This document shows positions 27,849 to 55,048 of a stretch of 64,000 bases of DNA, in pieces. The notes under the pieces are model-generated. The model was not told where the DNA came from. It worked only from the letters and a program-made list of their open reading frames with translations, and did not search any database. Position numbers and translations under genes: made by a program. The stretch comes from an uncultured Gemmatimonadales bacterium (GTDB taxonomy: Bacteria > Gemmatimonadota > Gemmatimonadetes > Gemmatimonadales > GWC2-71-9): the NCBI GenBank assembly GCA_963830455.1, contig CAWHMT010000004.1, forward strand, positions 434,644-498,643, read 5' to 3'. Every line of letters starts with the position of its first letter. Within the stretch, counting starts at the first letter, position 1.

Positions 27849-28511
27849 GTGTTGACCTGGCTCAGAACGAGACTCCGGGAGGGAATCCGGACGATTCGCT
27901 TCCCCGGAAATGGCGCGGATTTCCCGGAGCGGTTCCGAGGCCGGCCCCGAGGGTCCTCGGATCTCGGCACGTGTCTCTTCAGCCCGGAGGAGGTCGAATA
28001 CAGCCGCGATTATCGCATGGCCACATCCACACGGGAGGCGTTGGTCAGCCCCACCGGCGAGGTCAAGCTCGCCCGCGCCCTGGACGAGCGCGCGCGGAAG
28101 TTGTTCCGGCGCTCGCTGCGGCTCCGCTCGGTTGTCGCGGGGAGCTGCAACGGGTGCGAAGCCGAGCTCGTCGCGCTCGGAAACGTGGTGTTCGACTTAG
28201 CGCGATTCGGCGTCCAGTTCGTCGCCTCGCCGCGGCACGCCGACGGTATCGTCGTCACTGGCGCGGTGAACCGGAACATGCGGCGCGCGCTGGAGCTGAC
28301 GTATGAAGCAGTCCCACCGCCGAAGATCGTGATCGCGGTCGGGGCCTGCGCTATCAGCGGGGGCCCGTTTGTGGGCAGTCCCGAGGTCGGCACAGGCGTC
28401 GGCGAGATCCTCCCGGTAGACCTGTGGGTGCCGGGGTGCCCACCGCACCCGCTCACGACGCTCGACGGTCTGCTCCGCTTGCTGGGGGCGATCGACGGCG
28501 AGGAATCTTAG
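27849..28511 (+). CDS. NuoB/HycG-HyfI-like small subunit (one 4Fe-4S site) with a vestigial HycF/NuoI-like N-terminus
   Basis: GSCNGCE, VGACAISGG and VPGCPPHP provide the four Cys. The N-terminal ~90 aa start TIRFPGNGADFPERFRGRP (HycF/NuoI-like) but contain no CxxCxxCxxxCP motif. Confidence 0.8.
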   Translation: MLTWLRTRLREGIRTIRFPGNGADFPERFRGRPRGSSDLGTCLFSPEEVEYSRDYRMATSTREALVSPTGEVKLARALDERARKLFRRSLRLRSVVAGSCNGCEAELVALGNVVFDLARFGVQFVASPRHADGIVVTGAVNRNMRRALELTYEAVPPPKIVIAVGACAISGGPFVGSPEVGTGVGEILPVDLWVPGCPPHPLTTLDGLLRLLGAIDGEES

Positions 28512-29494
28512 CGCGCCTCGAACATTCCCACCGCGCCCTTCGTGGCGTCCGCAAACGCGTGACTGACGAAGGGGTACGTGCCCGGCTCCACAAGACGCGT
28601 CTCGAAGATCGCGCCCCCTCCGACAGGGACTGTGACCGTCTGCACTCCCTCGAGGGGATGCGTGAGCGAACCGTCGAGGTACACTCTGTCAAAGATGGCC
28701 CCGACTACGTGGAACGCTGAGAAGCGATTGGGGCCCGCGTTCACGACATACATGCGCAGTTTTTCGCCGACGCCGACGCGAATGGGGTGATGCGCGTACT
28801 CCGCCTCGCGGCCGTTGAACACGACGTAGTCCGGCGCCAGTCCCAACAGCTTCTCCCAATCGATGATGCGGCTCGAGTCGGCGAGCGTTTTCGTGTAGAA
28901 CTCGCTTTGGACAAACACAAACTCCTTCGCTGGGGCGCGCCCTTCGCGTGGATCGACGATGATGGCGCCGTACATCCCGTTCGCGATGTGCAGCGCGACC
29001 GGTGCGGTGCCGCAGTGATACATGAACGCTCCCGGCACGTGCGGCACAAACCGATAGTGCAGCGAGTCGTGGGGCATCAGGTTCACGTAGGCGCGGCTCG
29101 GCGCGATCTCGGCCGCGTGGAAATCCAGGCTGTGCGGCATGGGGGCCTCGTTCACGAGCGTGAAGTCCACTGTGTCCCCGACGGTGACGCGCAGGACGGG
29201 TCCCGGCACCCGGCCGTCGAACGTCCAGGCGTCGTACGTCACGCCTTGTGCGATCGTGATTTTCATATGGCGAATGGCAACGCGGAGGCGATGCAAGCGT
29301 CCCGTTGCGCGGGCGGGCGCGACGGGATCGATGGGGGCGGGCAGCTCACCTGAACCGACCGGCGCCTCGCCGTGCGATACATCTGCCGGAGCCGTCGCGG
29401 GTGGGGTCTCGGCGTGCTGTGTCGGTCGAGACTCCGGCTCACGGCAGGCGCACAATGCAACAGCTGTAAGAAGGGATAATCCGTGACGGCGCAT
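28508..29494 (-). CDS. nirK: Copper-containing nitrite reductase (NirK-type two-domain cupredoxin), lipoprotein form
   Basis: MPHSLDFHAAE (T1 His, catalytic Asp, T2 His), MYHCGTAPVALHIANGMYG (T2 His, T1 Cys/His/Met), FHVVGAIFD, PFVSHAF. Signal peptide with LCAC, then a Pro/Ala-rich linker. Confidence 0.8.
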   Translation of the reverse strand: MRRHGLSLLTAVALCACREPESRPTQHAETPPATAPADVSHGEAPVGSGELPAPIDPVAPARATGRLHRLRVAIRHMKITIAQGVTYDAWTFDGRVPGPVLRVTVGDTVDFTLVNEAPMPHSLDFHAAEIAPSRAYVNLMPHDSLHYRFVPHVPGAFMYHCGTAPVALHIANGMYGAIIVDPREGRAPAKEFVFVQSEFYTKTLADSSRIIDWEKLLGLAPDYVVFNGREAEYAHHPIRVGVGEKLRMYVVNAGPNRFSAFHVVGAIFDRVYLDGSLTHPLEGVQTVTVPVGGGAIFETRLVEPGTYPFVSHAFADATKGAVGMFEAR

Positions 29495-29504
29495 CTAATC
29501 GCTC

Positions 29505-29531
29505 CTTCCTGATGGCTTCAGGGGCTCTTCA
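29505..29531. promoter_or_regulatory. Three phased CTTC[CA] repeats (CTTCC-N6-CTTCA-N6-CTTCA) in the nirK / CBS divergent region
   Basis: Units start at 29505, 29516 and 29527 (11-bp spacing). The 16-mer CTTCCTGAnnnCTTCA recurs at 54201. Confidence 0.45.
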
Positions 29532-29574
29532 TCTGAAAAGGGCGTACGTGTCTTTGTACCCTCGAGGAGGACCC

Positions 29575-29976
29575 ATGAAGGTCGCCGAGCTGATGCAGAC
29601 GAGTCTCAAGACGATCAGCAGCGAAGCCACCATCGCCGACGCCGTCGTCGTCTTCGCCGAGGCGCAAGTTTCGGCCGTGCCGGTTATCGATCGTCTGGGA
29701 CGCGCGGTCGGCGTGGTGTCGACGCGCGAGATCCTCAAGGCCGAAAGCGCGTGCGATTCGCCGCTTGCCCGCGATCGGTTGTTCGAGCGCACGCGCGTGC
29801 TCGAGATCATGACGCCCTGGCCGGTGACCATCGGTCCTGATCTCGACGTCCGGCTGGCCGCGCAGGAGATGCTCTATCTCAACGTGCAGCGACTGTTCGT
29901 CGAGTTTGACGGCGCGCTCGTGGGCGTCATCTCCCAGACGGATATCGTGGGGGCGGTGGCGACTGCCAAAGTCTAG
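29575..29976 (+). CDS. CBS-domain pair protein
   Basis: Two CBS motifs (VSAVPVIDRLGRAVGVVSTREI; VQRLFVEFDGALVGVISQTDI). GGAGG 5 nt upstream of the ATG. Confidence 0.85.
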   Translation: MKVAELMQTSLKTISSEATIADAVVVFAEAQVSAVPVIDRLGRAVGVVSTREILKAESACDSPLARDRLFERTRVLEIMTPWPVTIGPDLDVRLAAQEMLYLNVQRLFVEFDGALVGVISQTDIVGAVATAKV

Positions 29977-30473
29977 GTCCGGCGCAGCACCGACCAGCGG
30001 CCCGTCTGAGTGATCCCGGACTGCAACCGCGTCGTGTAGGTACCCTCGATCGCATTGCCTTTGAGTTCCCCGGCGAACGTCGTCGACAGACGCTCACCGG
30101 TTTGGGGATCGGCATAGGCATCCAACGTGCCGCTGACCCGCCCTTGCTCCACGCGCACGAATCGAATCGTGAGGACGGTGGTCGCCGCCGACGCGGTCGG
30201 ACTGGCGATCTGCCCCTCCGTGTACGGCGTCACGGGGCGGCCCAACCCCTTGGGAATCATGACCACGTCGCCGAACGCGGAGTCGCCGGTCGCGCGCAGC
30301 GTAAAGCTGATGCTGCCGCTGCGGCCCGACTCCCCGCTGCTGTACTCGCCGGCCCATTCGCCGGTCAGAGCGGCGACGTCCGTGGCTGCGCCGACGAGTG
30401 GAACGGGTGGGCGTGAAGCGCCACACGCGCTGAGCATGAAGGCCAGAAGCGGGAGTGTTGGAAGACGAGCCAT
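29973..30473 (-). CDS. Hypothetical lipoprotein
   Basis: MARLPTLPLLAFMLSAC lipobox. Start set at the internal ATG 30473. Confidence 0.6.
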   Translation of the reverse strand: MARLPTLPLLAFMLSACGASRPPVPLVGAATDVAALTGEWAGEYSSGESGRSGSISFTLRATGDSAFGDVVMIPKGLGRPVTPYTEGQIASPTASAATTVLTIRFVRVEQGRVSGTLDAYADPQTGERLSTTFAGELKGNAIEGTYTTRLQSGITQTGRWSVLRRT

Positions 30474-30551
30474 GATCGCCTCGCGGTCGTGGGTGTGCGT
30501 GTAACGCGCGACGGCGGGCGCGCTGCCCGTCCTTAAGATGAAGCCTGATGC

Positions 30552-31814
30552 ATGAATTGTCACTGTGGCCGGCATGAAGCATTATCTCGTGTGCCCTCGG
30601 CAGGCGAAGCGACCCGAGTTCGGGAGCGGTTCGAACGGCTACTCGCGGCCGGCGTGGCGATCTTCTCGCGACACGAGCTCGCGCACGTGCTGCAGGAGGT
30701 CGTAGACGCCGCTCGTGACGTTGTCGGCGCTCGCTACGCCGCGCTCGGCGTCCTTGGACCGGACGGAACGAGCTTCGTGCAGTTTGTAACGTCGGGCATG
30801 GAGGAAGCCGCGCGGCAGCGGATCGGCGATCCTCCGCGCGGACGCGGTCTGCTGGGTCTGGTGATCCGCGAAGGCAAGCCCATCCGCAGCGCCGACATCA
30901 ATCGCCACCCGCAGCGCTACGGATATCCGCCGCACCATCCGCCGATGACGTCGTTTCTGGGCGTGCCGGTGAAAGGGCGTGGCGGCGCCTTCGGCAATCT
31001 GTATCTCACCGAGAAGATCGATGCGTCTGAGTTCAGCGACGAAGATGAAGCGATCGCCGTGCTGCTCGCCGCGCAAGCGGCGGTCGCCGTCGAGAATGCG
31101 CGCCTGCTGACTGAGAGCGAGCAGCTCGTGGGCCAGATTCGCGCGATGCAACGCCAACGCGACTTGTTTTTCGCGATGATGAACCACGAGCTGCGCAACG
31201 CGCTCACCGGCGTGTACGGCTGGGCGGAGCGGCTGGTGCGCCGGAAAACGCCCGACGTCTCCGACCGAGCTGCGCGTGAGGTGTACGAAGCGGCCGACCG
31301 CACGATCGTGCTCATGAACAACTTCCTCGATCTCATGCGGCTCGATGCGGGGAAGATCCGGCCAGTCATCCGGGAAGTGGACACCCAGGCCGTGGTGCAG
31401 CGGGCCATTACGACCAGCGAGCCGGCCGCGGCGGCGAAACAGCAAAGTCTACGGGTCGTTTTGGACGGCGCCCCCGCTACTCTGCACACCGACTCCGTGC
31501 GACTCGAGCAGATCCTCGTGAATCTCTTGTCCAATGCCATCCGGCACAGTCCGGGACTAGCGTCTGTCTCTGTGAAGGTCGAGGCGGCGCCGAACGGCGT
31601 GACGTTTTTCGTCATCGATCATGGGCCCGGTGTGCCGCTCGAGCTGCGCGAGCGGATCTTCGAGCCGTTCGAGCGCTTCGATCCCCACTCGGGGCATGGG
31701 ACCGGGCTTGGCCTCCCCGTATCGCGGGGGCTGGCAGAGGCACTGGGGGGCAGCCTGACGGTGGAAGAGACAGCTGGCGGTGGCGCGACTTTCATCCTTA
31801 AGATTCCTTCATGA
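30552..31814 (+). CDS. Soluble GAF-domain sensor histidine kinase
   Basis: GAF (GLLGLVIREGKPIR...FLGVPVKGRGGAFGNLYLTEK), HisKA (MNHELRNALTGV), HATPase (IDHGPGVP...GTGLGL). No TM segment. The start may be GTG 30591. Confidence 0.85.
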   Translation: MNCHCGRHEALSRVPSAGEATRVRERFERLLAAGVAIFSRHELAHVLQEVVDAARDVVGARYAALGVLGPDGTSFVQFVTSGMEEAARQRIGDPPRGRGLLGLVIREGKPIRSADINRHPQRYGYPPHHPPMTSFLGVPVKGRGGAFGNLYLTEKIDASEFSDEDEAIAVLLAAQAAVAVENARLLTESEQLVGQIRAMQRQRDLFFAMMNHELRNALTGVYGWAERLVRRKTPDVSDRAAREVYEAADRTIVLMNNFLDLMRLDAGKIRPVIREVDTQAVVQRAITTSEPAAAAKQQSLRVVLDGAPATLHTDSVRLEQILVNLLSNAIRHSPGLASVSVKVEAAPNGVTFFVIDHGPGVPLELRERIFEPFERFDPHSGHGTGLGLPVSRGLAEALGGSLTVEETAGGGATFILKIPS

Positions 31815-31817
31815 ATC
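31795..31817. promoter_or_regulatory. AT-rich motif cluster TCCTTAAGATTCCTTCATGAATC upstream of the response-regulator gene
   Basis: Contains TCCTTAAGAT (also at 30530), AAGATTCCTTCA (also at 35890), the palindrome TTCATGAA and GATTC-N6-GAATC. CCTT[ACT] units at 31796, 31806 and 31817. Confidence 0.5.
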
Positions 31818-31857
31818 CTTTAGAAATGGTTCAACGCTCCGCTGCTAGCGTGCCTGC

Positions 31858-32544
31858 ATGAAGATTCTCGTGGTGGAGGACGACCGAAAGGTCGCGGGAT
31901 TCATCGAGCAGGGTCTGCGCGAGGAAGGCTACGTTGTCGACGTCGCTCCCGATGGGGACCAGGGTACGATGCTGGCGCACGTCTACGACTATGACCTCCT
32001 GGTGCTGGACGTCATGCTCCCCAAGAAGACGGGGCTACAGCTGGCTGCGGAGATACGGCGTGAAGGGCGCGCGACTCCCATCCTCATGTTGACCGCCCGC
32101 GACACGACCGAAGACGTGGTGCGGGGGCTCGACGCCGGCGCCGACGACTATCTCACGAAGCCGTTCAAGTTCGACGAGCTGCTTGCCCGCGTGCGCGCGT
32201 TGGTGCGCCGCGGCGGCTCCGGCCGCACCGAGCTGCTGCGCTACGGGCCGGTGGAGCTGGACCGCTTGAAGCACAAGGCACGCGTGGAGGGCAAGATGCT
32301 CGATCTCACGCCGAAGGAATTCCACCTGCTGCAACACTTTCTCTTGCATCCCGAGGAAGTCGTGCGCCGCACGGAGCTCCTGGAAAAAGTGTGGGACATG
32401 CACTTCGACCCCGAGAGCAACGTGGTGGACGTGCACGTCGGGAATCTACGCCGCAAGCTGAAACAGGCGGTCGGCTTCGAATTGATCGAAACCGTTCGCG
32501 GGGTGGGGTTCCGGCTGCAGACGCCCGACCGAGCGGAGGTGTGA
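31858..32544 (+). CDS. OmpR/PhoB-family response regulator (CusR/CopR-like)
   Basis: MKILVVEDD...LLVLDVMLPKKTG...LTKPF, plus a winged helix (LTPKEFHLLQHFL...VRGVGFRL). Confidence 0.9.
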   Translation: MKILVVEDDRKVAGFIEQGLREEGYVVDVAPDGDQGTMLAHVYDYDLLVLDVMLPKKTGLQLAAEIRREGRATPILMLTARDTTEDVVRGLDAGADDYLTKPFKFDELLARVRALVRRGGSGRTELLRYGPVELDRLKHKARVEGKMLDLTPKEFHLLQHFLLHPEEVVRRTELLEKVWDMHFDPESNVVDVHVGNLRRKLKQAVGFELIETVRGVGFRLQTPDRAEV

Positions 32545-33611
32545 GAGGGTCGCTGCGCCGCACGCTGGCTCTGCGGTTTGCGGCGACGATGGCGGCCGGG
32601 TTGCTCCTCGCGACCGGGGCCTTTTACTGGGCCGCGTCGCGCGAACTGCAGCAATCGGTCCCTGCCGCCGAGCTCCGCGGTGACCTGCTGCTGGTGCTCG
32701 CGTCGATCGTCGTGGCGGGAAGCGCCGCGACCCTCATGGGCGCGTGGCATTTCACGTCGTCCGCCGTTGGTCCAGTCGCCGAAATCACTGCGCAGGCCAC
32801 GCGTATCGAAGCCGGCACGCTGGACCAGCGCATTCTCGCGCATGCTGATACCGAAGAATACGAAGGACTCGTCGCCGTCCTGAACCGCATGTTGGAGCGG
32901 CTGGAGCGGGGGTTCGCCGCGCAACGCCGTCTGACAGCGGACGTCAGTCATGAGCTACGAACGCCGCTCACCGCGCTCCGCGGAGAGATGGAAGTGGCGC
33001 TGCGGTCGCCGCGCTCGCAGCGCGAGTACGAGCAGGTCCTGCGCAGCGGTCTCGAGGAGATCGATCGCCTCACCGAGATGAGCGAGGATCTGCTGCTCGT
33101 GACCCGCGCTGAGGCAAGCGTGATCAGCGCCAAGCGTGTCGCCACCGATCTGGCCCGACTCGTGGACGACAAGCTGGATCGGCTGCACCGGAAGTTCGAA
33201 GAGCGCGATCTCACCGTGGATCGCGTGTTGTGCTGCGACCATCCGAGCGTGTTGGTCGATCCCGAGCTCATCACACGGCTGGTCGATCATCTGCTCGACA
33301 ATGCGTTGCAGTTTACGCCGCTGGGCGGCCGCATCACCGTGCAGGTGCACCCCATCCCCGGGGGAGGGGGTCTCCGCCTGGCGGTCGAGAACACCGGGCC
33401 CGGCATTGCTGCCGCGGACCTGCCTCACCTCTTCGAGCCGTTCTATCGCTCCGACCCGGCGCGCACGCGCACCGACACCAGCGGAACGGGTCTTGGCCTC
33501 GCCCTCGTAGCCTCGATCGCCCATCTGCACGGTGGGGTTGCCCGGGCGTCGAGCGTGCCCGACCAGAGCACCCGGTTCGAAGTCGATCTCCCCGCGCCCC
33601 CGGCCAATTGA
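32541..33611 (+). CDS. Membrane histidine kinase (CusS-family architecture with only a ~16-aa extracytoplasmic loop)
   Basis: GTGA overlap with the RR gene. Two TMs separated by SRELQQSVPAAELRGD. HAMP, HisKA (SHELRTPLTAL), HATPase (NTGPGI...GTGLGLAL). Confidence 0.85.
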   Translation: MRGSLRRTLALRFAATMAAGLLLATGAFYWAASRELQQSVPAAELRGDLLLVLASIVVAGSAATLMGAWHFTSSAVGPVAEITAQATRIEAGTLDQRILAHADTEEYEGLVAVLNRMLERLERGFAAQRRLTADVSHELRTPLTALRGEMEVALRSPRSQREYEQVLRSGLEEIDRLTEMSEDLLLVTRAEASVISAKRVATDLARLVDDKLDRLHRKFEERDLTVDRVLCCDHPSVLVDPELITRLVDHLLDNALQFTPLGGRITVQVHPIPGGGGLRLAVENTGPGIAAADLPHLFEPFYRSDPARTRTDTSGTGLGLALVASIAHLHGGVARASSVPDQSTRFEVDLPAPPAN

Positions 33612-33621: not shown

Positions 33622-33765
33622 ATGCCCGTCACGGCTCCAAAGCAGGAGACCGAGCACCCCCGTGGCACACTGTTCCTGATCGGCTTGTATGGCGTGGTGT
33701 TCGCCGCCGCATGGTTCGCCGTCTACTTCCTCGTGTATCTCCACCGTGGCGGGGTGACGCCATGA
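33622..33765 (+). CDS. cbaD: ba3-type cytochrome oxidase subunit IIa-like single-TM peptide (47 aa)
   Basis: GGAGGG SD. HPRGTLFLIGLYGVVFAAAWFAVYFLVYLHRGG resembles Thermus subunit IIa. ATGA overlap with the subunit II gene. Confidence 0.55.
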   Translation: MPVTAPKQETEHPRGTLFLIGLYGVVFAAAWFAVYFLVYLHRGGVTP

Positions 33766-34235
33766 ACGTTCCGCTCTACGAAAAGATCTGGATGTGGGCG
33801 TCCGGCTTTTTGATCGTGGCGTTCGTCACGACCATCGCGGTTGGCGTCGCGGGCAGCGCACTGCAACCACCCAGCCACGTGGAAACGATCGATCCCACAA
33901 AAGTCTGGAACGACCCACGCTTCGCGAAGCGCGGCGTCACCGTCGACGAGCACGGCGCCACAGTGGTGCTGATCGCCATGATGTTCGCGTTTCAGCCTGC
34001 CGAGGTGCACGTACCGGCGAATCGGCCGGTGACGTTCCGCGTGACGAGCGCCGATGTGACGCACGGGTTCCAGATCGTCGGCACCAACGGCAACACGATG
34101 GTCGTACCGGGCTACGTCAGCCAATTCACGACGACGTTCCGCACGCCGGGTGAGTACCTGATCGTCTGCAACGAGTATTGCGGCCTCTCACACCACCTGA
34201 TGTCCGCGAAACTCATCGTGGAGGCCCAGCCATGA
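33762..34235 (+). CDS. cbaB: Cytochrome c oxidase subunit II, ba3 (B-family) type, CuA site
   Basis: One TM plus cupredoxin domain. HGFQI...CNEYCGLSHHLM (H, C-x3-C-x3-H-x2-M CuA ligands). Confidence 0.85.
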   Translation: MNVPLYEKIWMWASGFLIVAFVTTIAVGVAGSALQPPSHVETIDPTKVWNDPRFAKRGVTVDEHGATVVLIAMMFAFQPAEVHVPANRPVTFRVTSADVTHGFQIVGTNGNTMVVPGYVSQFTTTFRTPGEYLIVCNEYCGLSHHLMSAKLIVEAQP

Positions 34236-35854: not shown

Positions 35855-35860
35855 GCCTGC

Positions 35861-35901
35861 TTCATGAAGGCTTCTTTCGCCCGACCCTCAAGATTCCTTC
35901 A
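35861..35901. promoter_or_regulatory. Motif cluster TTCATGAAGG...CCCTCAAGATTCCTTCA upstream of the USP gene
   Basis: TTCATGAA palindrome at 35861-35868. Exact 12-mer AAGATTCCTTCA at 35890-35901, shared with 31800-31811. CC[CT]TCA units 11 bp apart. Confidence 0.5.
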
Positions 35902-35954
35902 CGGGCGCTCGACGACTTTGAGGACGTACCCCGTCGCCCACTGAGGGAGGACCG

Positions 35955-36845
35955 ATGAAAACGCAACCGATCGTCGCGGGCGTGGACGGTTCGCTCGAGA
36001 GCGTCGCGGCGGCCCACGTCGCTTGGACGCTGGCCGAGGCGTCAGCGGTATCGTGTCAGCTGGTGCATGCGGCCAACGATGTCAACGCCGCCCTCGCGTT
36101 CGCCGGTACCGGTGTGGTGACGGAAACACTCCAGCTGGCGGAGCTCAGTCGCGCGCGCGCCGAGGTGGCCGCCTCACTGCGGGACCGCGTGCCGGCAGCC
36201 GCCATTCATGGGATGGTCGTGAGCACCGGCGGCACAGCGGACGTTCTCGAGGCGGTCGTCCGGGAAACCGACGCCGCGTTGCTCGTGCTCGGAGGGAAGC
36301 ATCATTCCAAACTCGGCCGCTGGCTCGGTGGCAGCACCGTGCAGCACGTGGTGCGTCGGCTGACCGTCCCGCTCCTCGTCACGGCTGGCGAGATACGCCC
36401 CCATCCCCGGGTGATGGTCGCGGTCGATCCTTCGTATGCCGCTCTCCCGACGGCTCGCGTAGCGGTCGCCTTCGCGCGGCTGCTGGGGAGCCCCTTGCGT
36501 GCCTTGCATGTGATCAATCCGGCGCCGGCCGTCGCGGAGCTGCCGCGGGACTGGTCGCGCGAGATCATCGAGCGCGATGTCTGGCCGGCCATTCCGCTCG
36601 TCGAGCAGAGCAAGGTCATGCGCGAAGGCGATCCGCTCGCGACGATCGTGACGGAGGCGGCGGCGTGGCGCGCCGATATCATCGTCGTCGGCTCGCACGG
36701 TAAGGGCTGGGTCGATCGGTTGCTCATCGGCAGCGTGACCGAGAATCTGCTGAACAACTTGCCGTGTGCCGTCCTCGTGGTGCCCGTGCCTGCGCCGCAC
36801 CGGGAGGAAACGGTGCCGGCTCGCGCGCTGGCCACGGGGGGCTAG
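35955..36845 (+). CDS. Universal stress protein, tandem USP domains
   Basis: Two UspA-like halves (IVAGVDGS...LLVLGGKHHSKLGRWLGGSTVQHVVRRLTVPLLV; VMVAVDPS...IIVVGSHGKGWVDRLLIGSVTENLLNNLPCAVLVVP). Confidence 0.9.
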   Translation: MKTQPIVAGVDGSLESVAAAHVAWTLAEASAVSCQLVHAANDVNAALAFAGTGVVTETLQLAELSRARAEVAASLRDRVPAAAIHGMVVSTGGTADVLEAVVRETDAALLVLGGKHHSKLGRWLGGSTVQHVVRRLTVPLLVTAGEIRPHPRVMVAVDPSYAALPTARVAVAFARLLGSPLRALHVINPAPAVAELPRDWSREIIERDVWPAIPLVEQSKVMREGDPLATIVTEAAAWRADIIVVGSHGKGWVDRLLIGSVTENLLNNLPCAVLVVPVPAPHREETVPARALATGG

Positions 36846-44460: not shown

Positions 44461-44467
44461 ACATCCC

Positions 44468-45582: not shown

Positions 45583-45607
45583 GGGACGCATCACTGGAGG
45601 AGGACGT

Positions 45608-47610: not shown

Positions 47611-50180
47611 CTTCGTCCTGGCACACGCTAAGCGTACCCGAGGCGCTCCGGCGCGCACGTAGCGCCTCGGAGGGCCTCAGTGCCGCCGAGGCGCGCGCCC
47701 GGCTCGCGCGCGACGGGCCCAACGAGCTTCCCGCCCCGAAGCGGACATCTTTTTGGCGCATCCTGCTACATCAAATCTCCAGCGTCATCACGCTGCTACT
47801 GCTCGCAGCGGCAGCGGTGGCGCTCGTCCTGGGCGACGGGCTCGACGCCGCGGCGATCGTGGCCGTGTTGGTGATCAACGTGACGTTGGGGCTCGTCACG
47901 GAGCTGCCGGCGCGGCGTGCCATGCATGCCTTGCTGTCCCTCGAGGTGCCCCACGCGACCGTACTGCGCGACGGCCGGCCGGAGCACATCGACGCTCGGG
48001 ACCTCGTGCAAGGAGATGTGATCGTTCTCGAGGCCGGCCAAGCGGTCCCCGCCGACGCGCGGCTGGTCGAGGCTGTCGAGGCGCGTACCGTGGAAGCCAC
48101 GCTGACCGGGGAAGCGGCGCCGGTCTCGAAAGACGCCGCGCTCACCCTGCCCGGCGAGACGGCCCTCGCCGACCGGCGCAACATGCTGTATCGCGGCACG
48201 ACGGTGGTGGACGGAGCGGCGCGGGCGCTCGTTGTGGAAACGGGTCTTCACACGGAAGTCGGCCGGATCGGCACGCTCATCGGCACGCTGCCCGATGAAG
48301 CGACTCCACTCGAGCGCCGGCTCGCGGTATTGGGACGCCGGCTGGCGGTCGTCGCGCTGTCCGTCGCCGCGCTCGTAGCCGCGCTGGGGCTCCTCCAGGG
48401 GCGCGGCTGGAGCGACGTGCTCCAGCTCGGCCTGGCGCTCGGCATCGCCGCGGTCCCGGAGGGCCTGCCTGTGGTGGCGACGGTTGCGCTCGCCATCGGG
48501 ATGCGCCGCATGGCCCGGCGGCGCGCGCTCGTGCGGCGGCTCGCCATCGTCGAGACGCTCGGCTCCACGACGGTCGTGTGCACGGATAAGACCGGCACGC
48601 TCACCACGGGAGAGATGACCGCGACGACGTTCATTGCCGACGGCCGGGAGATCGCCGTGACCGGCGCCGGATACGCGCCGCACGGGGTGTTCCATGAGCT
48701 CGGCGCACCCGTCGATCCGCGGGAGCGGCCGCTGCTCAATCTCGCGCTGCGCATCGGCGTGCTCGCGAGCCGACCCGAAATCGCGCTGCCCGCGAGCGGA
48801 GGCGTGCCCCCCGGTGATCCCACCGAGATCGCGTTGGTGGTCGCCGCGGCGAAAGGCGGGGTGGATGCGCGGCGCGCGCGCGCGGAGGCCGGCACCCTGG
48901 TCGCGCAGATTCCGTTCTCGAGCGCCCGGCGCTACATGGCCGTCCACTATCGCAGTCCCGAGGGAATCCTGACCGCCTATATGAAGGGCGCCCCCGGTCG
49001 GGTGCTGGAGCGCTGCGCCTTGACCGACGACGAGCGCCGCCGGTTGGAGGGGATGAACCACTCCTTCGCGGCGCGTGGGCTCCGTTTGCTGGGGCTGGCG
49101 TGCGGTCCGGTGCGCGGCACCGACGAGGCGACGCTTCGTGAATTGACCTTCGCCGGGTTCGTGGGGCTCGCCGATCCACCGGCCCCGGGAGTCGAGGATG
49201 CGCTGCTGGCATTACACGATGCCGGCATTCACACGGTCATGCTGACGGGCGACCAGCGCTGGACGGCCGAGGCCATCGCGCGGCGTCTCGGTCTCTCCGA
49301 AGTGTTCAGCAGGGTCACCCCTGAGGAGAAGCTGCGCATCGTGGCCGACTTCCAGCGCCGGGGTGAGATCGTGGCCATGCTCGGGGACGGCGTGAATGAC
49401 GCCCCCGCGCTGAAGAAAGCGGACATCGGTGTCGCGATGGGACGCGGGGCGGATGTCGCCAAGGCCACGGCCGGACTGGTTCTGCAAGACGACCGGTTCG
49501 GGACGATCACCGCGGCGGTTGAGGAAGGCCGCGTGATCTTCGACAATCTGCGCAAGTTTGTCTTCTATCTGTTCAGCTGCAATCTGGGCGAGATCTGCGT
49601 CTTTCTGGGCGCCGGATTGGCGGGCTGGCCCGCGCCGCTCTTGCCGCTGCAGATCCTCTGGCTCAACATCGTGACCGACACCTTTCCGGCTCTCGCGCTG
49701 GCGTTCGAGCCGGCGGAGCCGGACCTGATGCGTCGTCCCCCGCGCTCCCCGCGCGCCGCGATTCTCTCGGCCGGGATGGTCCGGCTGACGGCCGGCTACG
49801 CGATACTCATCGCGGTGTGCACCCTGGCCGCGGCGTGGTGGGGGATGCACGCAGCCCCGGCATCGCCCGCCTACGCGACGACGCTGGCGTTCACGACGTT
49901 GGCCGTCGCACAGGTCTTTCACCTCGGGAATGCCCGCAGCCAGGGACCGGTCGTGCGGCCGGCGCGGATCGTCGCGAATGTTTATGCGCTCGGCGCCGTC
50001 GCGCTGGTGCTCTTGCTCCAGGTGTGCGCGACGCAGTGGTCGCCGCTCGCCGGGCTGCTCGGCACGGTGCCGCTAGGATGGCGGGAGTTTCTGATTGTCG
50101 GAGGCTTGGGTCTGATTCCGGGCGTGGTCGGTCAGGTCGTCAATGTGTTCCGCGGCTGGCGGGTGCATGTCGCGGGCTAG
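47565..50180 (+). CDS. P2-type cation-transporting P-type ATPase (Ca/Mg-type, CtpF-like)
   Basis: GLSAAEARARLARDGPNEL, TGEAAPV, CTDKTGTLT, MLTGD, GDGVNDAPALKKADIGVAMG, 10-TM layout. GTG start overlaps the upstream gene by 46 nt. Confidence 0.9.
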   Translation: MGARRSAGDLPVGAVASSWHTLSVPEALRRARSASEGLSAAEARARLARDGPNELPAPKRTSFWRILLHQISSVITLLLLAAAAVALVLGDGLDAAAIVAVLVINVTLGLVTELPARRAMHALLSLEVPHATVLRDGRPEHIDARDLVQGDVIVLEAGQAVPADARLVEAVEARTVEATLTGEAAPVSKDAALTLPGETALADRRNMLYRGTTVVDGAARALVVETGLHTEVGRIGTLIGTLPDEATPLERRLAVLGRRLAVVALSVAALVAALGLLQGRGWSDVLQLGLALGIAAVPEGLPVVATVALAIGMRRMARRRALVRRLAIVETLGSTTVVCTDKTGTLTTGEMTATTFIADGREIAVTGAGYAPHGVFHELGAPVDPRERPLLNLALRIGVLASRPEIALPASGGVPPGDPTEIALVVAAAKGGVDARRARAEAGTLVAQIPFSSARRYMAVHYRSPEGILTAYMKGAPGRVLERCALTDDERRRLEGMNHSFAARGLRLLGLACGPVRGTDEATLRELTFAGFVGLADPPAPGVEDALLALHDAGIHTVMLTGDQRWTAEAIARRLGLSEVFSRVTPEEKLRIVADFQRRGEIVAMLGDGVNDAPALKKADIGVAMGRGADVAKATAGLVLQDDRFGTITAAVEEGRVIFDNLRKFVFYLFSCNLGEICVFLGAGLAGWPAPLLPLQILWLNIVTDTFPALALAFEPAEPDLMRRPPRSPRAAILSAGMVRLTAGYAILIAVCTLAAAWWGMHAAPASPAYATTLAFTTLAVAQVFHLGNARSQGPVVRPARIVANVYALGAVALVLLLQVCATQWSPLAGLLGTVPLGWREFLIVGGLGLIPGVVGQVVNVFRGWRVHVAG

Positions 50181-50976
50181 CGGTCTGCTGGTACTTGCAT
50201 GCGCCGTGCTGATGGCTGAACCGGGCGGGGCGCAGGAAGTCAAGCGACTCTTTGCCCCGCTGATCGCCGATCCCAAGCAACCCCATTTTTTCGCGACCTG
50301 GCTTTGGACCAAGTCTCCGAGTGTTACCGGATCGGTGTCGAGCATCGGGCTCGGCGAGGATATCGTGTTCGCGACCGGCCGGAATCACCGCTGGGAGATC
50401 GGTGTCGCGGCCGGCGTGTTCTCCCAGTTCAACATGGGCACAGCCTCGATTGACCTGATCAACACGGACTTCACGATCGGGTTTCCGCTCGGCTACCGCA
50501 CCGGGGCGGTCTCGTGGCACCTCCAGCTATACCATCAAAGCTCGCACCTCGGCGACGAATTCATTCTCAACACCAATCCCACGCGAGTGAACCTCTCATT
50601 CGAGGCGGTCGAGTTGCTTGCGTCGCGCGAGTTCGGCGACGTGCGCGCCTACGGGGGCGGCGAGTACCTCGTGCGGCATGAACCGGCGGACTTGAAGCCG
50701 GGGCTCCTCCATGCCGGCGTCGAGTTTCGGCCATCGTCACCGGGGGTTGGAAAGGGCCGGCTGATCGCGGCGATCGATGCCAAGTCGTCGCAGGAACGCG
50801 AATGGCGTGTCGGCTGGAGCGGTCGGGTGGGAATCGAGTTTCGCGTCCCGATGCACGGAACGGCAGTGCGGCGTTTCAGCGTCCAACTGCAGGGCTACAC
50901 CGGACCCGCCCCATACGGCCAGTTCTATCAGGAAAACGTGCGGTCACTGGGAGTGGGCATCCACCTGGCGCTGTGA
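50167..50976 (+). CDS. Putative outer-membrane beta-barrel protein (DUF1207-like)
   Basis: Signal peptide. LFAPLIADPKQPHF motif. Alternating beta-strand pattern. C-terminal ...GVGIHLAL. Confidence 0.5.
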   Translation: MSRASGLLVLACAVLMAEPGGAQEVKRLFAPLIADPKQPHFFATWLWTKSPSVTGSVSSIGLGEDIVFATGRNHRWEIGVAAGVFSQFNMGTASIDLINTDFTIGFPLGYRTGAVSWHLQLYHQSSHLGDEFILNTNPTRVNLSFEAVELLASREFGDVRAYGGGEYLVRHEPADLKPGLLHAGVEFRPSSPGVGKGRLIAAIDAKSSQEREWRVGWSGRVGIEFRVPMHGTAVRRFSVQLQGYTGPAPYGQFYQENVRSLGVGIHLAL

Positions 50977-51106
50977 GCGAGGGGGATTCGTCCCTCCTTC
51001 CGGTCGTCGCGCGACGCGATGAGGCGTTGGTGAAGAAGACTTGCCGGAAAGAACACGACAGCTTCAGCCCGCGGCGACGATGTTGGTGGAGGTCAAGGAG
51101 AGCAAC

Positions 51107-51658: not shown

Positions 51659-52597
51659 TCAGCAGTGGACGAGCAGATCCGCGAGCGATCTATCCTCGTG
51701 CAGGCGACGAATGGCCTCCGCCATGAGCGGCGCTATCGTGACGACGCGGACGGGCAGCGCAGCGGTTGCGGACGGCGGTGCGACGCTGTCGGTGACGATC
51801 AGCTGTCGCACTCCGCTTTGCGCAAGTCGCGCCAGGGCATCTCCCACCAGCAGGCCATGCGTTGCCACGACGGTGAACTCCGGACGGCATCCGGCATTGC
51901 GCAGGGCAGCGATCGCGGCGGCGACCGTCGCGCCGGTGCTGATCATGTCGTCCACGATGATCGGTGCGTAGCCGGCGACTTGCCCGGTGATGCCGCGCAC
52001 CTCGACCTGCTCGCCCGTGATGCGCGTTTTGTGGATGAGCGCCACCGGGAGCTCGAGCGCGCGACCGTAGCGGTCGGCGAGGCGCGCCGCGCCGAGATCG
52101 GGCGCGACGACGACACGGGAGTCGGCGCCGTCCTCCACGGCACGGGCGAGAGCCGGAACGGCGGTCAAGTGCTCCAGCGGGACGGAAAAGAATCCTTCGA
52201 GCGTGGGCGAATGCAGGTCCAGCGCCACGATCCGCTCGATCCCCGCCGCCACGAGGATGTCGGCGATGAGGCGGGCGCCCACCGGCTCCCGCCCGCCGGC
52301 GCGCCGATCCTGCCGCGCGTAGCCGAAGTACGAGATGACGGCCGTTAGCCGCCTGGCGCCGGCGCGGCGACAGGCATCCGCGAGCAGCAACAGCTCGAGC
52401 AGGTGGCGCTCGAAGGGCGGCGCCGTCGGCTGCACTACATAGACATCCTCACCCCGCAGGCTATCGCGGACGGCGACGTGCAGCTCGCCATCGGGAAATC
52501 GATGTAAGCTGGTGACGCCGAGCCGAGTTCCGAAGTGTAGCGCGACCGCTTCCGCGAGCTGCGGGTTTGCGGAGCCCGTCAACAGCGTCAGGTTCAC
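51659..52597 (-). CDS. prs: Ribose-phosphate pyrophosphokinase (PRPP synthetase)
   Basis: LLTGSANPQLAEAVA, FPDGE, YFGYARQDRR, VAPDLGAARLA, IIVDDMISTGATV. GTG start. Confidence 0.9.
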   Translation of the reverse strand: MNLTLLTGSANPQLAEAVALHFGTRLGVTSLHRFPDGELHVAVRDSLRGEDVYVVQPTAPPFERHLLELLLLADACRRAGARRLTAVISYFGYARQDRRAGGREPVGARLIADILVAAGIERIVALDLHSPTLEGFFSVPLEHLTAVPALARAVEDGADSRVVVAPDLGAARLADRYGRALELPVALIHKTRITGEQVEVRGITGQVAGYAPIIVDDMISTGATVAAAIAALRNAGCRPEFTVVATHGLLVGDALARLAQSGVRQLIVTDSVAPPSATAALPVRVVTIAPLMAEAIRRLHEDRSLADLLVHC

Positions 52598-52725: not shown

Positions 52726-52850
52726 GGCGCCTCCTGAGCGAATCGTGACCATACCACCCGGTCCCTAAGGACCCCGTGAAGTTGTCTTCAGTGGATCTTC
52801 AGGTACCGGGCTCACAGACTGCGCTACGTTGGTCGCGAGGGGGCGAACGA

Positions 52851-54197
52851 ATGCAGAACCCGGAGCTACAGTTTCTCGGCGCCGCGGGTACCGTGACGGG
52901 AGCGATGTACCTCGTCCGGACGTCCGCCGCTGAGGTCCTGCTCGACTGCGGGCTGTTTCAGGGTCTGAAGGCACTGCGCTTACGGAACTGGGGCCAACGC
53001 GTCGCGAACCCCCGGGGCATCGGCGCGGTGCTGCTCAGTCACGCGCACATCGACCACACTGGCTACCTCCCGTTGCTCGTCGGCCAGGGGTTCCGCGGCC
53101 CGGTGTACTGCACGCCGGCAACCGCCGACCTCGCACGCGTGCTGCTGCCGGACTCGGCGCATTTGCAGGAAGAAGAAGCGGAGCGCGCGAATCGCCGCGG
53201 ATACTCGAAGCACCACCCGGCCTTGCCGCTGTACACGATGGCGGACGCCGCCGCAGCGCTGGAGCTGCTGCAAGCGCGCCCCTTCGACCAACCGTTTCCC
53301 GTCTCGCGCGGCATCACAGCACTGTTCCGCACGGCGGGCCACATTCTTGGTGCGGCAACGATCCAGCTCGAACTCGACGGCATCCGCCTGGTTTACTCGG
53401 GTGACCTCGGACGTTGGAACCAACCGCTCCTGCCATCTCCCGAACTTGTTCCGGCCGCGGATGTCCTGCTGCTCGAATCCACGTACGGCGAGCGGACGCA
53501 CCCGACCGGGGCAGCCGAGCAGCTTGCTCGGATCGTGACGGATACCGCCCGGCGCGGCGGGGTTCTGCTCATTCCCGCCTTCGCCGTCGATCGCACCCAG
53601 GAAGTCGTATTGCTCCTGGAACAGCTCGAGCGGCAAGGCCGGATTCCGGCGCTGCCCGTCTACCTCGATAGTCCGCTGGCCATCGAAGCGACCGAGATCT
53701 ATGCCCGGCACGGCGCCTACCGTATGCCGGCGCGCTATCGCTTCGCGCGGACGCCGGCGGAGTCGAAAGCGCTGAACGATCTCACCGGCCCCCTCATCAT
53801 CATTTCCGCGAGCGGCATGGCGACCGGTGGACGGATTCTGCATCACCTCACGCAGCGGCTGCCCGACGAGCGGACGACGGTCCTCCTGGTGGGGTTCCAG
53901 GGCGCGGGGACGCGGGGGCGGCTACTGGAAGAGGGCGCGCGCGAAGTGAAAATGCTCGGCCGGATGATCCCGGTGCGCGCGCGCATCGAGAAGATCGATG
54001 CACTGTCAGCCCACGCGGACCGTGACGAAATCATGCGGTGGCTCGATGGTTTCGAGCAGCCGCCGCGCGTGACGTATCTCGTGCACGGGGAACCATCGGC
54101 GGCGAGCGCACTGCGCGACGCGATTCGACAGCGCTTCGGCTGGAATGTGCAGGTCGCGGGCGACGGAGTGAGCGTGAGCCTGAACAAACCTGCATAG
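52851..54197 (+). CDS. MBL-fold beta-CASP hydrolase (RNA-metabolising, CPSF/RNase J-like)
   Basis: LLSHAHIDHTGYLP (HxHxDH), ...FRTAGHILGAA..., LLESTYG, ...SAHADRDEI...VHGE. Confidence 0.85.
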   Translation: MQNPELQFLGAAGTVTGAMYLVRTSAAEVLLDCGLFQGLKALRLRNWGQRVANPRGIGAVLLSHAHIDHTGYLPLLVGQGFRGPVYCTPATADLARVLLPDSAHLQEEEAERANRRGYSKHHPALPLYTMADAAAALELLQARPFDQPFPVSRGITALFRTAGHILGAATIQLELDGIRLVYSGDLGRWNQPLLPSPELVPAADVLLLESTYGERTHPTGAAEQLARIVTDTARRGGVLLIPAFAVDRTQEVVLLLEQLERQGRIPALPVYLDSPLAIEATEIYARHGAYRMPARYRFARTPAESKALNDLTGPLIIISASGMATGGRILHHLTQRLPDERTTVLLVGFQGAGTRGRLLEEGAREVKMLGRMIPVRARIEKIDALSAHADRDEIMRWLDGFEQPPRVTYLVHGEPSAASALRDAIRQRFGWNVQVAGDGVSVSLNKPA

Positions 54198-54200
54198 CAT

Positions 54201-54216
54201 CTTCCTGAGCACTTCA
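54201..54216. promoter_or_regulatory. CTTCCTGAGCACTTCA, second copy of the CTTCCTGAnnnCTTCA 16-mer
   Basis: 13/16 identical to 29505-29520. Lies at the start of a 413-nt non-coding gap. Confidence 0.4.
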
Positions 54217-54241
54217 CATCGGATGTGTAGCTTGCAACGAA

Positions 54242-54325
54242 GTTCCTCAGACGAGACGGGGAGATTCCAGGACCGGCAACGGAAGCGGAATCGGCGATCC
54301 GAATGATCATCTCGTCTGGGGGAGC
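54242..54325 (+). ncRNA. ffs: Candidate small SRP (4.5S, ffs-like) RNA hairpin
   Basis: Hand fold. A ~14-bp basal helix pairs 54243-54256 with 54310-54323. The apical part is GAUUCC-[AGGA]-CCG-GCAA-CGG-[AAGC]-GGAAUC. This parallels E. coli 4.5S domain IV: GGUC-[AGGU]-CC-GGAA-GG-[AAGC]-AGCC. The total length is short for an SRP RNA. Confidence 0.45.
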
Positions 54326-54544
54326 GGTGAGGCCGATCGCGCGCCTTACCCACGCCGGAAATGGCGCTCCGGCGTGCCGTGCAAGAGGTCCATCCGCGAT
54401 TCGACCGACTTGCAGCGCTCGTACCGGCGAACCATGAGGCTGGTCAAGCTTCGTGGGAATGGAAGCCGGAGCTCCCAAGGCCACAAGCGGCCGCGGGAAG
54501 AGGAACGGTAAAAGTCAATTTTCCGACTCCGGGTAACCGGTACG

Positions 54545-54579
54545 TAGAGCGGCCCGCCATCAAACAGCGGGCCGCTCTA
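54545..54579 (+). terminator. Intrinsic-terminator-like hairpin (13-bp stem, then GTTTTC)
   Basis: TAGAGCGGCCCGC-N9-GCGGGCCGCTCTA followed by a T-run on the + strand only. Confidence 0.55.
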
Positions 54580-54610
54580 GTTTTCGTGACGAACTCAGGC
54601 TGCAAGAAAC

Positions 54611-55048
54611 TCAGGCTGGTACCTGCGGCTGTTGTTGCTGGAGCAGCTTGCCGATCGCCGTATTCTCGCGGACGATATCCTCGAGGACATCATCGAGGGT
54701 CAGGATACCCGCGACGCGATCGCCCTCGGCCGTCACGACCAGCCGGCGGGTGCCCACCGACGCCATCTTGGACACCGCCTCCTCGATCGGCGTCTCGTCG
54801 CGCACGAAGTACACCGGCTTGCTCATGATGTCCGATACGCTCGCCTCCTCGGGATCGAGCCGCTCCACGACACAGCGCAGCACGATGTCACGGTCCGTAA
54901 TCATGCCGACCGCCTTCGCACCGCGATTCTCAACGAGGACCACGAGGGCGCCCACGTCGTAGTCCGCCATCCGCTTGGCGGCCTTCCAGACGCTCTCGTC
55001 CGGCGAGGCCGTCGCCAAAATCCGGCTGCAGAGCCGTCCCGCTGTCAT
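54611..55048 (-). CDS. CBS-domain pair protein
   Basis: GGAGG 5 nt upstream of ATG 55048. VGALVVLVENRGAKAVGMITDRDI and TRRLVVTAEGDRVAGILTLDDV. Confidence 0.85.
   Translation of the reverse strand: MTAGRLCSRILATASPDESVWKAAKRMADYDVGALVVLVENRGAKAVGMITDRDIVLRCVVERLDPEEASVSDIMSKPVYFVRDETPIEEAVSKMASVGTRRLVVTAEGDRVAGILTLDDVLEDIVRENTAIGKLLQQQQPQVPA

Follow-up and report, generated by a model that had tools for sequence, protein, structure and literature searches.

Sensor, regulator, and oxidase genes at the core of the cluster

The 64,000-nucleotide stretch of contig CAWHMT010000004.1 analyzed here (hereafter, the window) carries a cluster of roughly 32 kb that resembles the tuberculosis dormancy regulon and contains a soluble sensor kinase, a response regulator (RR), a ba3-type oxidase, and a series of stress-survival genes. 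A sequence-only reading of the same DNA had proposed a block of about 27 kb, at positions 28508-55048, and had described it as a DosR-like survival island in a non-actinobacterial diderm. We examined the window proteins by Pfam, NCBIfam, and PDB sequence searches, and the gene families named in that reading were all found where it had placed them or nearby, although it had missed a DUF1207 gene, a glycine-zipper protein, two lipoproteins, a VKOR-like gene, and a CoxIIa-like open reading frame (ORF). G+C content across the window is 62-71%, and composition is unbroken across the block.

The soluble sensor kinase (30591..31814, + strand) has one GAF domain at residues 42-181, a HisKA domain (PF00512) from residue 203, and then HATPase_c, and a search of this protein for hydrophobic or transmembrane segments found none. 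Among solved structures, the GAF domain matched DosT (2VZW, E = 2e-43) and DosS/DevS (E ~ 1e-36), with other proteins far worse. In the alignment with DosT, 79 of 144 residues are identical (55%), and the conserved DosT residues include H147, Y169, G85, R106, I109, G110, G115, R116, and G117. Following published residue roles and numbering, H147 of DosT (H149 of DosS) is the proximal heme ligand and Y169 (Y171) the distal Tyr (PMC4082495); several pocket residues are conserved as well, and the conserved Gly85 is the DosT state of the position held by Glu87 in DosS. Judged by this alignment, the sensor GAF is a true homolog of the DosT/DosS heme GAF-A domain. GAF-domain relatives with 54-70% identity are joined to HisKA_3 (PF07730) in Chloroflexota and Actinobacteria, a pattern consistent with domain reshuffling; the homolog search behind it gave mostly fragments and is informative solely for the split between HisKA and HisKA_3.

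The adjoining RR gene (31858..32544, +) encodes an OmpR/PhoB-family protein with a receiver (Pfam Response_reg) and a winged-helix Trans_reg_C domain, the closest solved relatives of which are PrrA (Mtb), DrrD, and MtrA. Overlapping its end is the gene for a second kinase, HK2 (32541..33611, +), a membrane protein of the HAMP-HisKA-HATPase type. Its two transmembrane helices are linked by an outer loop of only about 15 residues, so HK2 lacks a periplasmic sensor domain. There follow the genes of a ba3-type (B-family) oxidase (33622..35854, +): a 47-amino-acid (aa) CoxIIa-like protein, COX2, and COX1. As the sequence-only reading had noted, RR, HK2, and the oxidase are co-linear, being joined throughout 31858-35854 by overlaps or 10-nt gaps, and the oxidase genes are apparently co-transcribed with RR-HK2. 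COX1 is closest to the Thermus ba3 enzyme (1EHK, E = 5e-119, versus 1e-20 for A-family oxidases); the CoxIIa-like ORF has a weak family match (E = 0.0098), and the cupredoxin subunit II, COX2, is present.

An identical RR protein was found on two large ENA metagenome contigs, which match the window at 99.3-99.5% identity along 20.7 kb. Scanning one genome per species, we found 536 RR relatives, the best 80 of which (81-98% identity) were used as RR-centered loci. Seventy-nine of these 80 are titled Gemmatimonadales, Gemmatimonadaceae, or Gemmatimonadota; orthologs are present in at least 80 Gemmatimonadales genomes, and we take the host to be a Gemmatimonadales bacterium and therefore non-actinobacterial, in agreement with the sequence-only reading. 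When all window proteins were compared with the RR-centered loci by tblastn, the core proved nearly invariant: RR was present in 82/82 loci, the GAF kinase in 75/82, and HK2 in 66/82.

Remaining genes of the cluster

On the left, the cluster begins with NirK, a copper nitrite reductase (28508..29494, - strand; Pfam Cu-oxidase_3/_2; PDB 3X1E, E = 9e-69), followed by a first CBS-pair protein (29575..29976, +; two Pfam CBS domains), called as a gene in L001/L002, and by a 166-aa lipoprotein with no Pfam family (29973..30473, -) that is kept next to the kinase in 26 loci. On the other side of the oxidase lie a tandem universal stress protein (USP; 35955..36845, +; two Pfam Usp domains) and a P1B heavy-metal ATPase (36928..38676, +), which scored 517 bits against TIGR01525 (cutoff 346) and also passed the cutoff of TIGR01512. 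This ATPase has the membrane motif PCP instead of CPC, no HMA domain, and no N-terminal metal-binding domain.

The next gene belongs, as had been proposed, to the ADP-forming acyl-CoA synthetase family (38673..40785, +; Pfam and NCBIfam), but in the window it is not intact: an additional base near 40361, which neither of the near-identical contigs has, splits it into two ORFs. An intact 703-aa version is found in L002, while L001 has other frameshifts, in COX1 and at a different place in the acyl-CoA synthetase. The extra base near 40361 is either an assembly error or a recent pseudogenization.

Reading in the opposite direction is an operon (40796..42956, -) for a YkuD L,D-transpeptidase (LDT; 41466-42956), a 90-aa VKOR-like protein, and a 134-aa lipoprotein. 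The LDT gene is kept, and is divergent from a DLH-family hydrolase gene, in L092, L094, L095, and L096. The glycine-zipper gene (43197..43943, +) does not lie between LDT and DLH in those four loci. Within the same interval of the window, a very basic 39-aa ORF, MAKKSRGGRMTAAKRRAGKAAGGRGRIKKRKAGKRIMKS, sits at 44006-44125 (-); it has a Shine-Dalgarno sequence and, downstream, a terminator hairpin. L084 retains this ORF, and gene calling in L091 gives a gene of 39 aa at the equivalent position. Speculatively, the composition of the ORF is like that of small ribosome-associated proteins. Another ORF at 44140-44421 is probably no gene, as its composition is poor, it was missed by a GC3 filter, and one of the promoter elements described below lies inside it.

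The DLH-family gene (44435..45172, +; PDB 2O2G, E = 4e-62) heads an operon-like run, 44435..50976, that continues on the same strand with a small cytochrome c with a CADCH motif (45169-45582), a phosphoribosyltransferase (PRTase; 45608-46285), an erythromycin-esterase family protein (~46285-47610), a P2A-like ATPase (47565-50180), and, at its end, DUF1207 (50143-50976). The order from DLH to DUF1207 recurs in L084, L091, L094, L095, and L096. The label "CtpF-like" previously given to the ATPase was verified at the level of the P2A family only.

Beyond this run, Pfam recognized three proteins as previously described: an HPF-CSD fusion, Prs, and a beta-CASP metallo-beta-lactamase. The first (~51107-51652, +) joins an S30AE domain of the ribosome-hibernation type (E = 1.4e-13) to a cold-shock domain (CSD) and scored 26.5 bits against NCBIfam yfiA, under the cutoff of 40.9. 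Long HPFs consist of S30AE and a C-terminal dimerization domain; here the C terminus is a CSD instead. The S30AE-CSD family comprises at least 137 clusters (50% identity, E <= 1e-30), mostly of single full-length matches of 175-200 aa, and the architecture seems to be undescribed in the libraries used. Prs, a ribose-phosphate pyrophosphokinase (51659..52597, -), is replaced by GYD-PolX in L094-L096; exact-protein look-ups of HPF-CSD and Prs gave no match, probably owing to start-codon choice. The RNase-type beta-CASP protein (~52851..54197, +), whose start was placed from the promoter motif and a Shine-Dalgarno sequence, and a second CBS-pair protein (54611..55078, -; Pfam) follow.

Further genes lie to the right of the border first proposed: an exporter made up of an ABC ATPase, an FtsX permease, and an HlyD-type adaptor (55173..59459, +), a VTT/DedA-family membrane protein (59473..60153, -), a LOG or "lysine decarboxylase"-family protein of uncertain start (60314..61321, +), and a third CBS-pair protein (61339..61887, +). 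FtsH (61892..63814, +) begins 4 nt later.

A direct-repeat element shared by about a dozen promoters

On reading the intergenic regions, we spotted a direct repeat, CTTCA-N6-CTTCA. With at most one mismatch, it occurs 15 times in the window, versus 1.45 expected, and 0 of 100 shuffles reached 15; 13 of the 15 sites fall within 29.5-55.2 kb, nearly all of them in promoter regions. The related loci, 1.13 Mb in all, contain 254 sites, versus about 20 in Markov shuffles, and the ORFs 3' of these most commonly encode RR, USPs, CBS proteins, the ABC ATPase, the GAF kinase, and NirK. In relatives, boxes also precede genes of families that the window lacks, namely small and multiheme cytochromes c and BON, globin-like, flavodoxin-like, and GNAT proteins.

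We then described the element by a position weight matrix (PWM) of 27 columns, trained on relatives only with the window left out. In the window, 20 positions scored at least 14 bits, versus 0-1 in shuffles, and all lie between 29494 and 61297, with none in the first 29 kb. Two later-fetched loci that played no part in training, L091 and L092, have 14 intergenic sites each, versus 0-1 in shuffles; these two scans and the window scan are the independent tests of the motif. The PWM exposes a weaker third half-site 11 bp upstream, and a TAnnnT element sits 23 nt downstream of the boxes, which therefore abut the -35 position. Direct repeats about one helical turn apart near -35 are the operator arrangement of OmpR/PhoB-family regulators, and we refer to the elements, as putative RR operators, as RR boxes. 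The shared cis-motifs claimed by the sequence-only reading thus correspond to CTTCA-N6-CTTCA arrays at about a dozen block promoters, conserved in relatives.

The strongest site in the window, an array of four half-sites (31796..31833, +; 32.2 bits), precedes RR and overlaps the stop codon of the kinase gene. Three half-sites in 11-bp phase occupy the divergent region between NirK and the first CBS gene (29494..29531, +; 20.5 and 23.7 bits), and another array precedes the tandem USP (35849..35912, +; 16.0, 21.7, and 13.0 bits). Two copies of an 81-bp repeat, 91% identical to each other, form bidirectional promoters at 42955..43035 (22.5 bits on the - strand, 22.3 on the +) and 44367..44447, and the glycine-zipper gene has boxes of its own (43102..43139, +; 15.8 and 13.3 bits). 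Farther right, boxes lie before HPF-CSD, in reversed orientation (51020..51046, -; 17.5 bits; kept in L083-L086 and L091), between Prs and the beta-CASP gene (52766..52803; 23.6 bits on +, 17.5 and 15.4 on -), before a candidate noncoding RNA (ncRNA) described below (54179..54216, +; 15.1 and 13.3 bits), between the second CBS gene and the ABC operon (55084..55137; 21.9 bits on +, 15.3 and 13.1 on -), and before the third CBS gene (61271..61297, +; 18.2 bits); the scan also returned a weaker box at the LOG-family gene (60313-60339).

The 81-bp copies flank a segment with the glycine-zipper gene and a small ORF. In L092 and L094-L096, nothing of this segment separates LDT from DLH, which are directly divergent there, and the segment therefore looks like an insertion accompanied by promoter duplication. 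The basic 39-aa ORF lies about 270 nt downstream of an RR box.

Among relatives, a box lies upstream of RR in 74 of 78 cases, on the same strand, and likewise of the ABC ATPase (14/14), NirK (16/20), USP (26/35), CBS (17/34), HPF-CSD (5/9), and PRTase (5/12) genes. None was found upstream of HK2 (0/64), COX2 (0/38), COX1 (0/36), P1B (0/42), FtsX (0/11), SulP (0/9), or the Ehr genes (0); the boxes in relatives therefore mark the first genes of units, not internal genes. The P1B gene is always placed after USP or oxidase genes and has no box of its own. Because the strongest and most conserved site precedes the RR gene, RR is the most economical candidate for the protein that binds the boxes, and autoregulation of the RR-HK2-ba3 operon is predicted. 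At RR (31846-31860) and at the ABC operon (55161-55175), the ATG lies 6-7 nt past the TAnnnT -10-like element, and this short distance suggests that the RR and ABC mRNAs are leaderless.

An OmpR-type RR and a HAMP kinase that adjoin a P1B ATPase, NirK, and a heme-copper oxidase could also be taken for a regulon that, like those of CopRS/CusRS, serves copper or heavy-metal homeostasis and in which such a pair acts on a P1B ATPase and copper enzymes. We rejected this explanation, which we rate as highly improbable, as HK2 has no periplasmic sensor domain, the P1B ATPase carries PCP rather than CPC and no HMA domain, the conserved partner of RR is a DosT-like heme GAF kinase, and the targets are mostly USP, CBS, HPF, RNase, and PRTase genes rather than metal genes.

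A candidate structured RNA within the cluster

Between the beta-CASP gene and the second CBS gene, we found a candidate structured ncRNA of about 350 nt (54241..54590, +). An RR box and, with it, a TGnTAGCTT -10-like element precede the candidate, and an intrinsic terminator, a hairpin followed by a T-run, closes it; we looked for a convincing ORF within it and found none. Copies occur in eight loci, the window included, with 75-95% conservation and indels of 1, 19, and 21 nt (L084:10760-11101, L085:4510-4851, L091:18969-19310, L087:10938-11274, L094:20251-20588, L069:1421-1784, and L044:2575-2938). The position of the element relative to neighboring genes shifts between loci, and all eight copies keep their own RR box.

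Its predicted fold is 5.2 standard deviations better than that of shuffles (z-score, -5.2). Compensatory changes occur in 17 of the 110 base pairs that make up the consensus, and 97% of its cells are paired, versus 33-45% with slid partners; 0 of 500 shuffles reached the observed covariation. A search against Rfam 15 gave no match at the gathering threshold, and permissive mode gave a chance-level miRNA (E = 8). Using nhmmer, we found no copies beyond the eight among the related loci compared. Because the sample is small, at eight sequences, and the structure itself comes from those eight, 54241-54590 stays a candidate for a new structured RNA.

The cluster is conserved as a unit among relatives

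The families of the island recur around the RR core in about 80 species-level genomes, in shuffled order. These include the ba3 genes COX2/COX1, P1B, USP, CBS, NirK, acyl-CoA synthetase, and PRTase, together with VTT, ABC-FtsX-HlyD, esterase, DLH, beta-CASP, and SulP. The exporter genes are directly divergent from the GAF kinase in L030, L035, L038, and L060, and VTT follows PRTase beside RR in L031, L035, L037, and L038.

The second half of the block is also conserved in metagenome contigs, and in four other genomes (L004+L091, L094, L095, and L096, where L091 overlaps L004 on one 1.83-Mb contig) both halves are contiguous and colinear. One run there reads HK2, CoxIIa, COX2, COX1, (globin), USP, P1B, acyl-CoA synthetase, (VIT1), VKOR-like, and LDT, and the other, divergent from it, reads DLH, cytochrome c, PRTase, esterase, P2 ATPase, (DUF1207), HPF-CSD, Prs or GYD-PolX, and beta-CASP, with the bracketed genes present sometimes.

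The sequence-only reading had allowed that its block might be a chance juxtaposition. Were it so, common stress genes would merely lie side by side with unshared regulation; USP, CBS, and P-type ATPase genes are indeed abundant, and gene order around RR varies by species. However, the motif is enriched more than 10-fold and confined to block promoters, colinearity of the block extends to at least four other genomes, and about 80 species have the same families around RR. Motif counts lie far above shuffled controls, and synteny and shuffled co-localization were likewise counted beyond chance. We consider the probability of chance juxtaposition to be negligible, as both the motif scans of the window and relatives and the colinearity contradict it; the block is a real unit. 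Its uniform GC and order-wide conservation also led us to reject a mobile island, and no integrase was seen.

By motif and by co-localization in relatives, the unit spans at least the interval from NirK (28508) to the third CBS-pair gene (61339-61887), or beyond. The limits first proposed therefore stood as regards the genes they enclosed but not at the right border, which lies at 61.9 kb or farther: ABC-FtsX-HlyD, VTT, the LOG-family gene, and the third CBS pair belong to the unit, and FtsH possibly does.

In the more distant L092, LDT and PRTase-esterase-P2 ATPase genes lie beside three tandem USPs, CBS, flavodoxin, Cpn60, BON, and OsmC genes. Within L092:14599-20678, RR boxes precede Cpn60, which is divergent from the BON protein gene, and a YgaP-like membrane protein gene, which is followed by OsmC and adjoined by hydrogenase maturation genes (an AIRS-domain protein and HypD). 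Because boxes in this locus precede other genes, regulon content varies between species.

Genes upstream of the cluster

Directly upstream of the block, as had been described, is a hyc-like operon of six genes for an Ehr-type complex (21369-28511, +). Its subunits are Hyc/Nuo-like, and a search of the large subunit (26315-27832) for the NiFe cysteine motifs RxCGxC and DPCxxC found neither, so that it lacks the four NiFe-ligating cysteines. The operon ends a co-directional run (18918-28511, +) that also includes a SulP/STAS transporter and a regulator with HTH_17 and PTS-EIIA2 domains. No RR boxes were found before the Ehr operon, the HTH_17-EIIA regulator, or SulP in the window or in relatives, and Ehr adjoins the island in a minority of loci only. 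Membership of Ehr in the regulon is thus unsupported, since an RR box was not found upstream, and by motif the operon falls outside the block; Ehr and SulP are neighbors rather than demonstrated members.

Farther upstream are tandem glutamine synthetase genes (7008-8564 and 8622-9971, +) and a set of signaling genes (433-5035, -) for a receiver-only protein, an AraC-type HTH_18 protein, and a protein with a receiver and an HD-GYP-type HD_5 domain. A tRNA at 13095-13166 was the sole match when the whole window was searched against Rfam.

A proposed regulon for stress survival and micro-oxic respiration

We think it probable that the genes of the block form one regulon, serving stress survival and micro-oxic respiration in a Gemmatimonadales bacterium. 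Under this proposal, the soluble kinase would sense a diatomic gas (O2, NO, or CO) or redox state through its DosT-type heme-binding GAF domain and would phosphorylate the adjoining OmpR-family RR, and HK2, embedded in the membrane and without a periplasmic domain, would probably phosphorylate RR too. Phosphorylated RR would then bind arrays of two to four CTTCA half-sites, 11 bp apart, that abut or overlap the -35 element of about a dozen promoters. Binding would activate RR's own operon with HK2 and the ba3 oxidase, as well as NirK, the USP-P1B ATPase-acyl-CoA synthetase unit, and the three CBS-pair proteins. Further predicted targets are the LDT operon, the DLH-cytochrome c-PRTase-esterase-P2 ATPase unit, and HPF-CSD, and the remaining ones would be the beta-CASP RNase, the ABC exporter, and the structured RNA. 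The sequence comparisons show the identities of the genes, the homology of the sensor, the conservation of the shared motif and its placement at promoters, and the synteny; heme binding, which kinase feeds RR, activation rather than repression, and the inducing signal are the parts of this scheme that we infer.

The same regulon under the same RR could instead respond to an input other than O2 limitation, an explanation that we regard as unlikely. In one version, the input is NO or nitrosative stress arising from the cell's own nitrite reduction, in keeping with the presence of NirK in the regulon, with a box upstream in most relatives, and with literature showing that DosS and DosT respond to NO and CO as well. 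In another, HK2 reports on the respiratory chain or membrane status and the GAF kinase is accessory or an orphan; HK2 does overlap RR, apparently shares a transcript with the ba3 oxidase, and has an outer loop of only about 15 residues. On the other hand, the GAF kinase is tied to RR more constantly than HK2 is and persists where HK2 is missing, and the distal Tyr, which is O2-discriminating in DosS/DosT, is conserved.

Several points weigh against our proposal. Heme binding by the GAF kinase is predicted from sequence, and induction by low O2, NO, or CO is likewise a prediction. The GAF kinase gene itself has no clear RR box, and HK2 alone could be the cognate kinase of RR. The box before HPF-CSD is oriented opposite to the gene. 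PDB searches showed no special closeness of the USP and CBS proteins to Rv2623 and Hrp1, so their likeness is one of families. Finally, the motif scan of the host genome covers 64 kb, and the counts in 1.13 Mb and those per ortholog are not independent of the sequences that defined the motif.

Should the proposed regulon hold, it has several implications. A DosT/DosS-type heme sensor and much of the Dos-type gene set would occur outside Actinobacteria and could run through a different transmitter, regulator class, and operator, and regulon content appears better conserved than regulatory logic. The comparison would also supply independent evidence for assigning poorly understood DosR-regulon genes, such as those for PRTase, esterase, and hydrolase proteins resembling Rv2030c and Rv0571c and for the CtpF-like ATPase, to a conserved module for survival at low oxygen. 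The block further provides a testable model of how a dominant, little-cultured soil phylum could survive oxic/anoxic fluctuation, linked to NirK and a high-affinity oxidase, along with a defined operator that is usable for regulon prediction in hundreds of metagenome-assembled genomes and a candidate new structured RNA.

A more ambitious reading, which we rate as less likely than not, has three linked parts: that an ancient "hypoxic hibernation toolkit" found across phyla (with USP, CBS, the P2 ATPase, an HPF-type factor, and the DLH-PRTase-esterase module, among others) is present in Gemmatimonadales, which are abundant in soil and for the most part uncultured; that the sensor module is shared with mycobacteria, with the output wholly rewired to an OmpR-type RR and a new operator; and that the regulon includes an undescribed class of structured RNA, of about 350 nt, acting in the hibernation response.

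Comparison with known systems

The label "DosR-like" fits the block in two respects, the homology of its GAF domain to the heme GAF-A of DosT/DosS, with proximal His and distal Tyr kept, and its family-level overlap with the DosR regulon. Both systems have two kinases and one regulator, and in the block, the motif predicts autoregulation of the RR operon while the DosT-like kinase gene has no clear box. Shared families include USPs, a CBS protein, an HPF-type factor (Rv0079/RafH), a P2 ATPase (CtpF), PRTase and erythromycin esterase as in Rv2030c, and PRTase as in Rv0571c, and a hyc-like cluster lies next door. In Rv2030c, a PRTase domain is joined to an erythromycin-esterase domain (PMC4410610). 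Of the other mycobacterial genes, Rv0571c encodes a putative PRTase and Rv0079 the ribosome factor RafH, and Rv0081-0088 are hyc-like (PMC5309233). Our own homolog search for PRTase fusions like those of Rv2030c and Rv0571c returned, among the 120 matches listed, single-domain Gemmatimonadales orthologs only, so the evidence for the fusion comes from the literature.

The two systems also differ. The block kinase has a single GAF domain rather than GAF-A plus GAF-B, and HisKA rather than HisKA_3; its RR is of the OmpR/PhoB type rather than the NarL/LuxR type; its second kinase is an unrelated membrane HAMP kinase; and its operator is an 11-bp-phased CTTCA direct repeat rather than the palindromic DosR box. 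The DosR box (core GGGACTnnAGTCCC), allowing up to two mismatches, occurs 0 times in the window, versus 2.6 expected, and the FNR box TTGAT-N4-ATCAA was likewise absent from it, in line with the different regulator class that had been proposed. The block adds the ba3 oxidase, NirK, ADP-forming acyl-CoA synthetase, and ABC exporter, while Acr/HspX, nitroreductases, and Tgs are absent from the window, and its host phylum is Gemmatimonadota.

A low-oxygen cluster is also known from another diderm. The lxa locus of Burkholderia cenocepacia comprises 50 genes induced by low oxygen, and an FNR-like motif recurs at 17 of its intergenic points. Among its products are six USPs, a cation ATPase, a protein of the sulfate-transporter family, a metal-dependent RNase, cytochrome c, an ABC/outer-membrane exporter, Ack and Pta, a "lysine decarboxylase," and two-component systems, and its authors pointed out the overlap with the DosR regulon (PMC3721108). 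Like lxa, our block is a contiguous cluster in which many intergenic points carry one common promoter motif, and it has USPs, two-component systems, a cation ATPase, a metal-dependent RNase, an ABC/adaptor exporter, a "lysine decarboxylase," cytochrome c, and genes for substrate-level ATP from acetyl-CoA; the family-level overlap with DosR and lxa thus extends to the RNase and the exporter. The sulfate-transporter-family gene of lxa may be compared with SulP beside the block. The two differ in that lxa uses an FNR/Anr-type inverted repeat, TGA-N6-TCA, and CRP-family regulators, whereas here neither was found, no CRP-family gene being present among the scanned window ORFs; in that ATP is made through Ack and Pta there and an ADP-forming synthetase here; and in that induction and deletion phenotypes of lxa are experimental, while the block is known from its sequence.

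Outside mycobacteria, the OsdKR system of Streptomyces coelicolor likewise has a Dos-type regulon, with stress and dormancy-related genes clustered around the regulator, and the OsdR and DevR regulons are reported to overlap (PMC5069765). OsdR is a DevR ortholog, NarL-type and still actinobacterial, whereas in our block transmitter, regulator class, and operator have all changed.

On the side of the regulator, the block recalls other systems. ArcA, ResD, and SrrA are OmpR/PhoB-type regulators that bind direct repeats with a spacing of about 11 bp and control respiratory or anaerobic-adaptation genes together with their own operon. Their kinases sense quinones or respiratory state, and none is known to use a DosT-type heme GAF. 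The block shares with them the regulator type and the repeat spacing and differs in half-site sequence, regulon content, and the DosT-type heme GAF of its kinase. In our searches of the literature, we came across no account of such a system from Gemmatimonadota, and the block is best filed as a rewired form of a known kind of regulon, that of DosRST and lxa.

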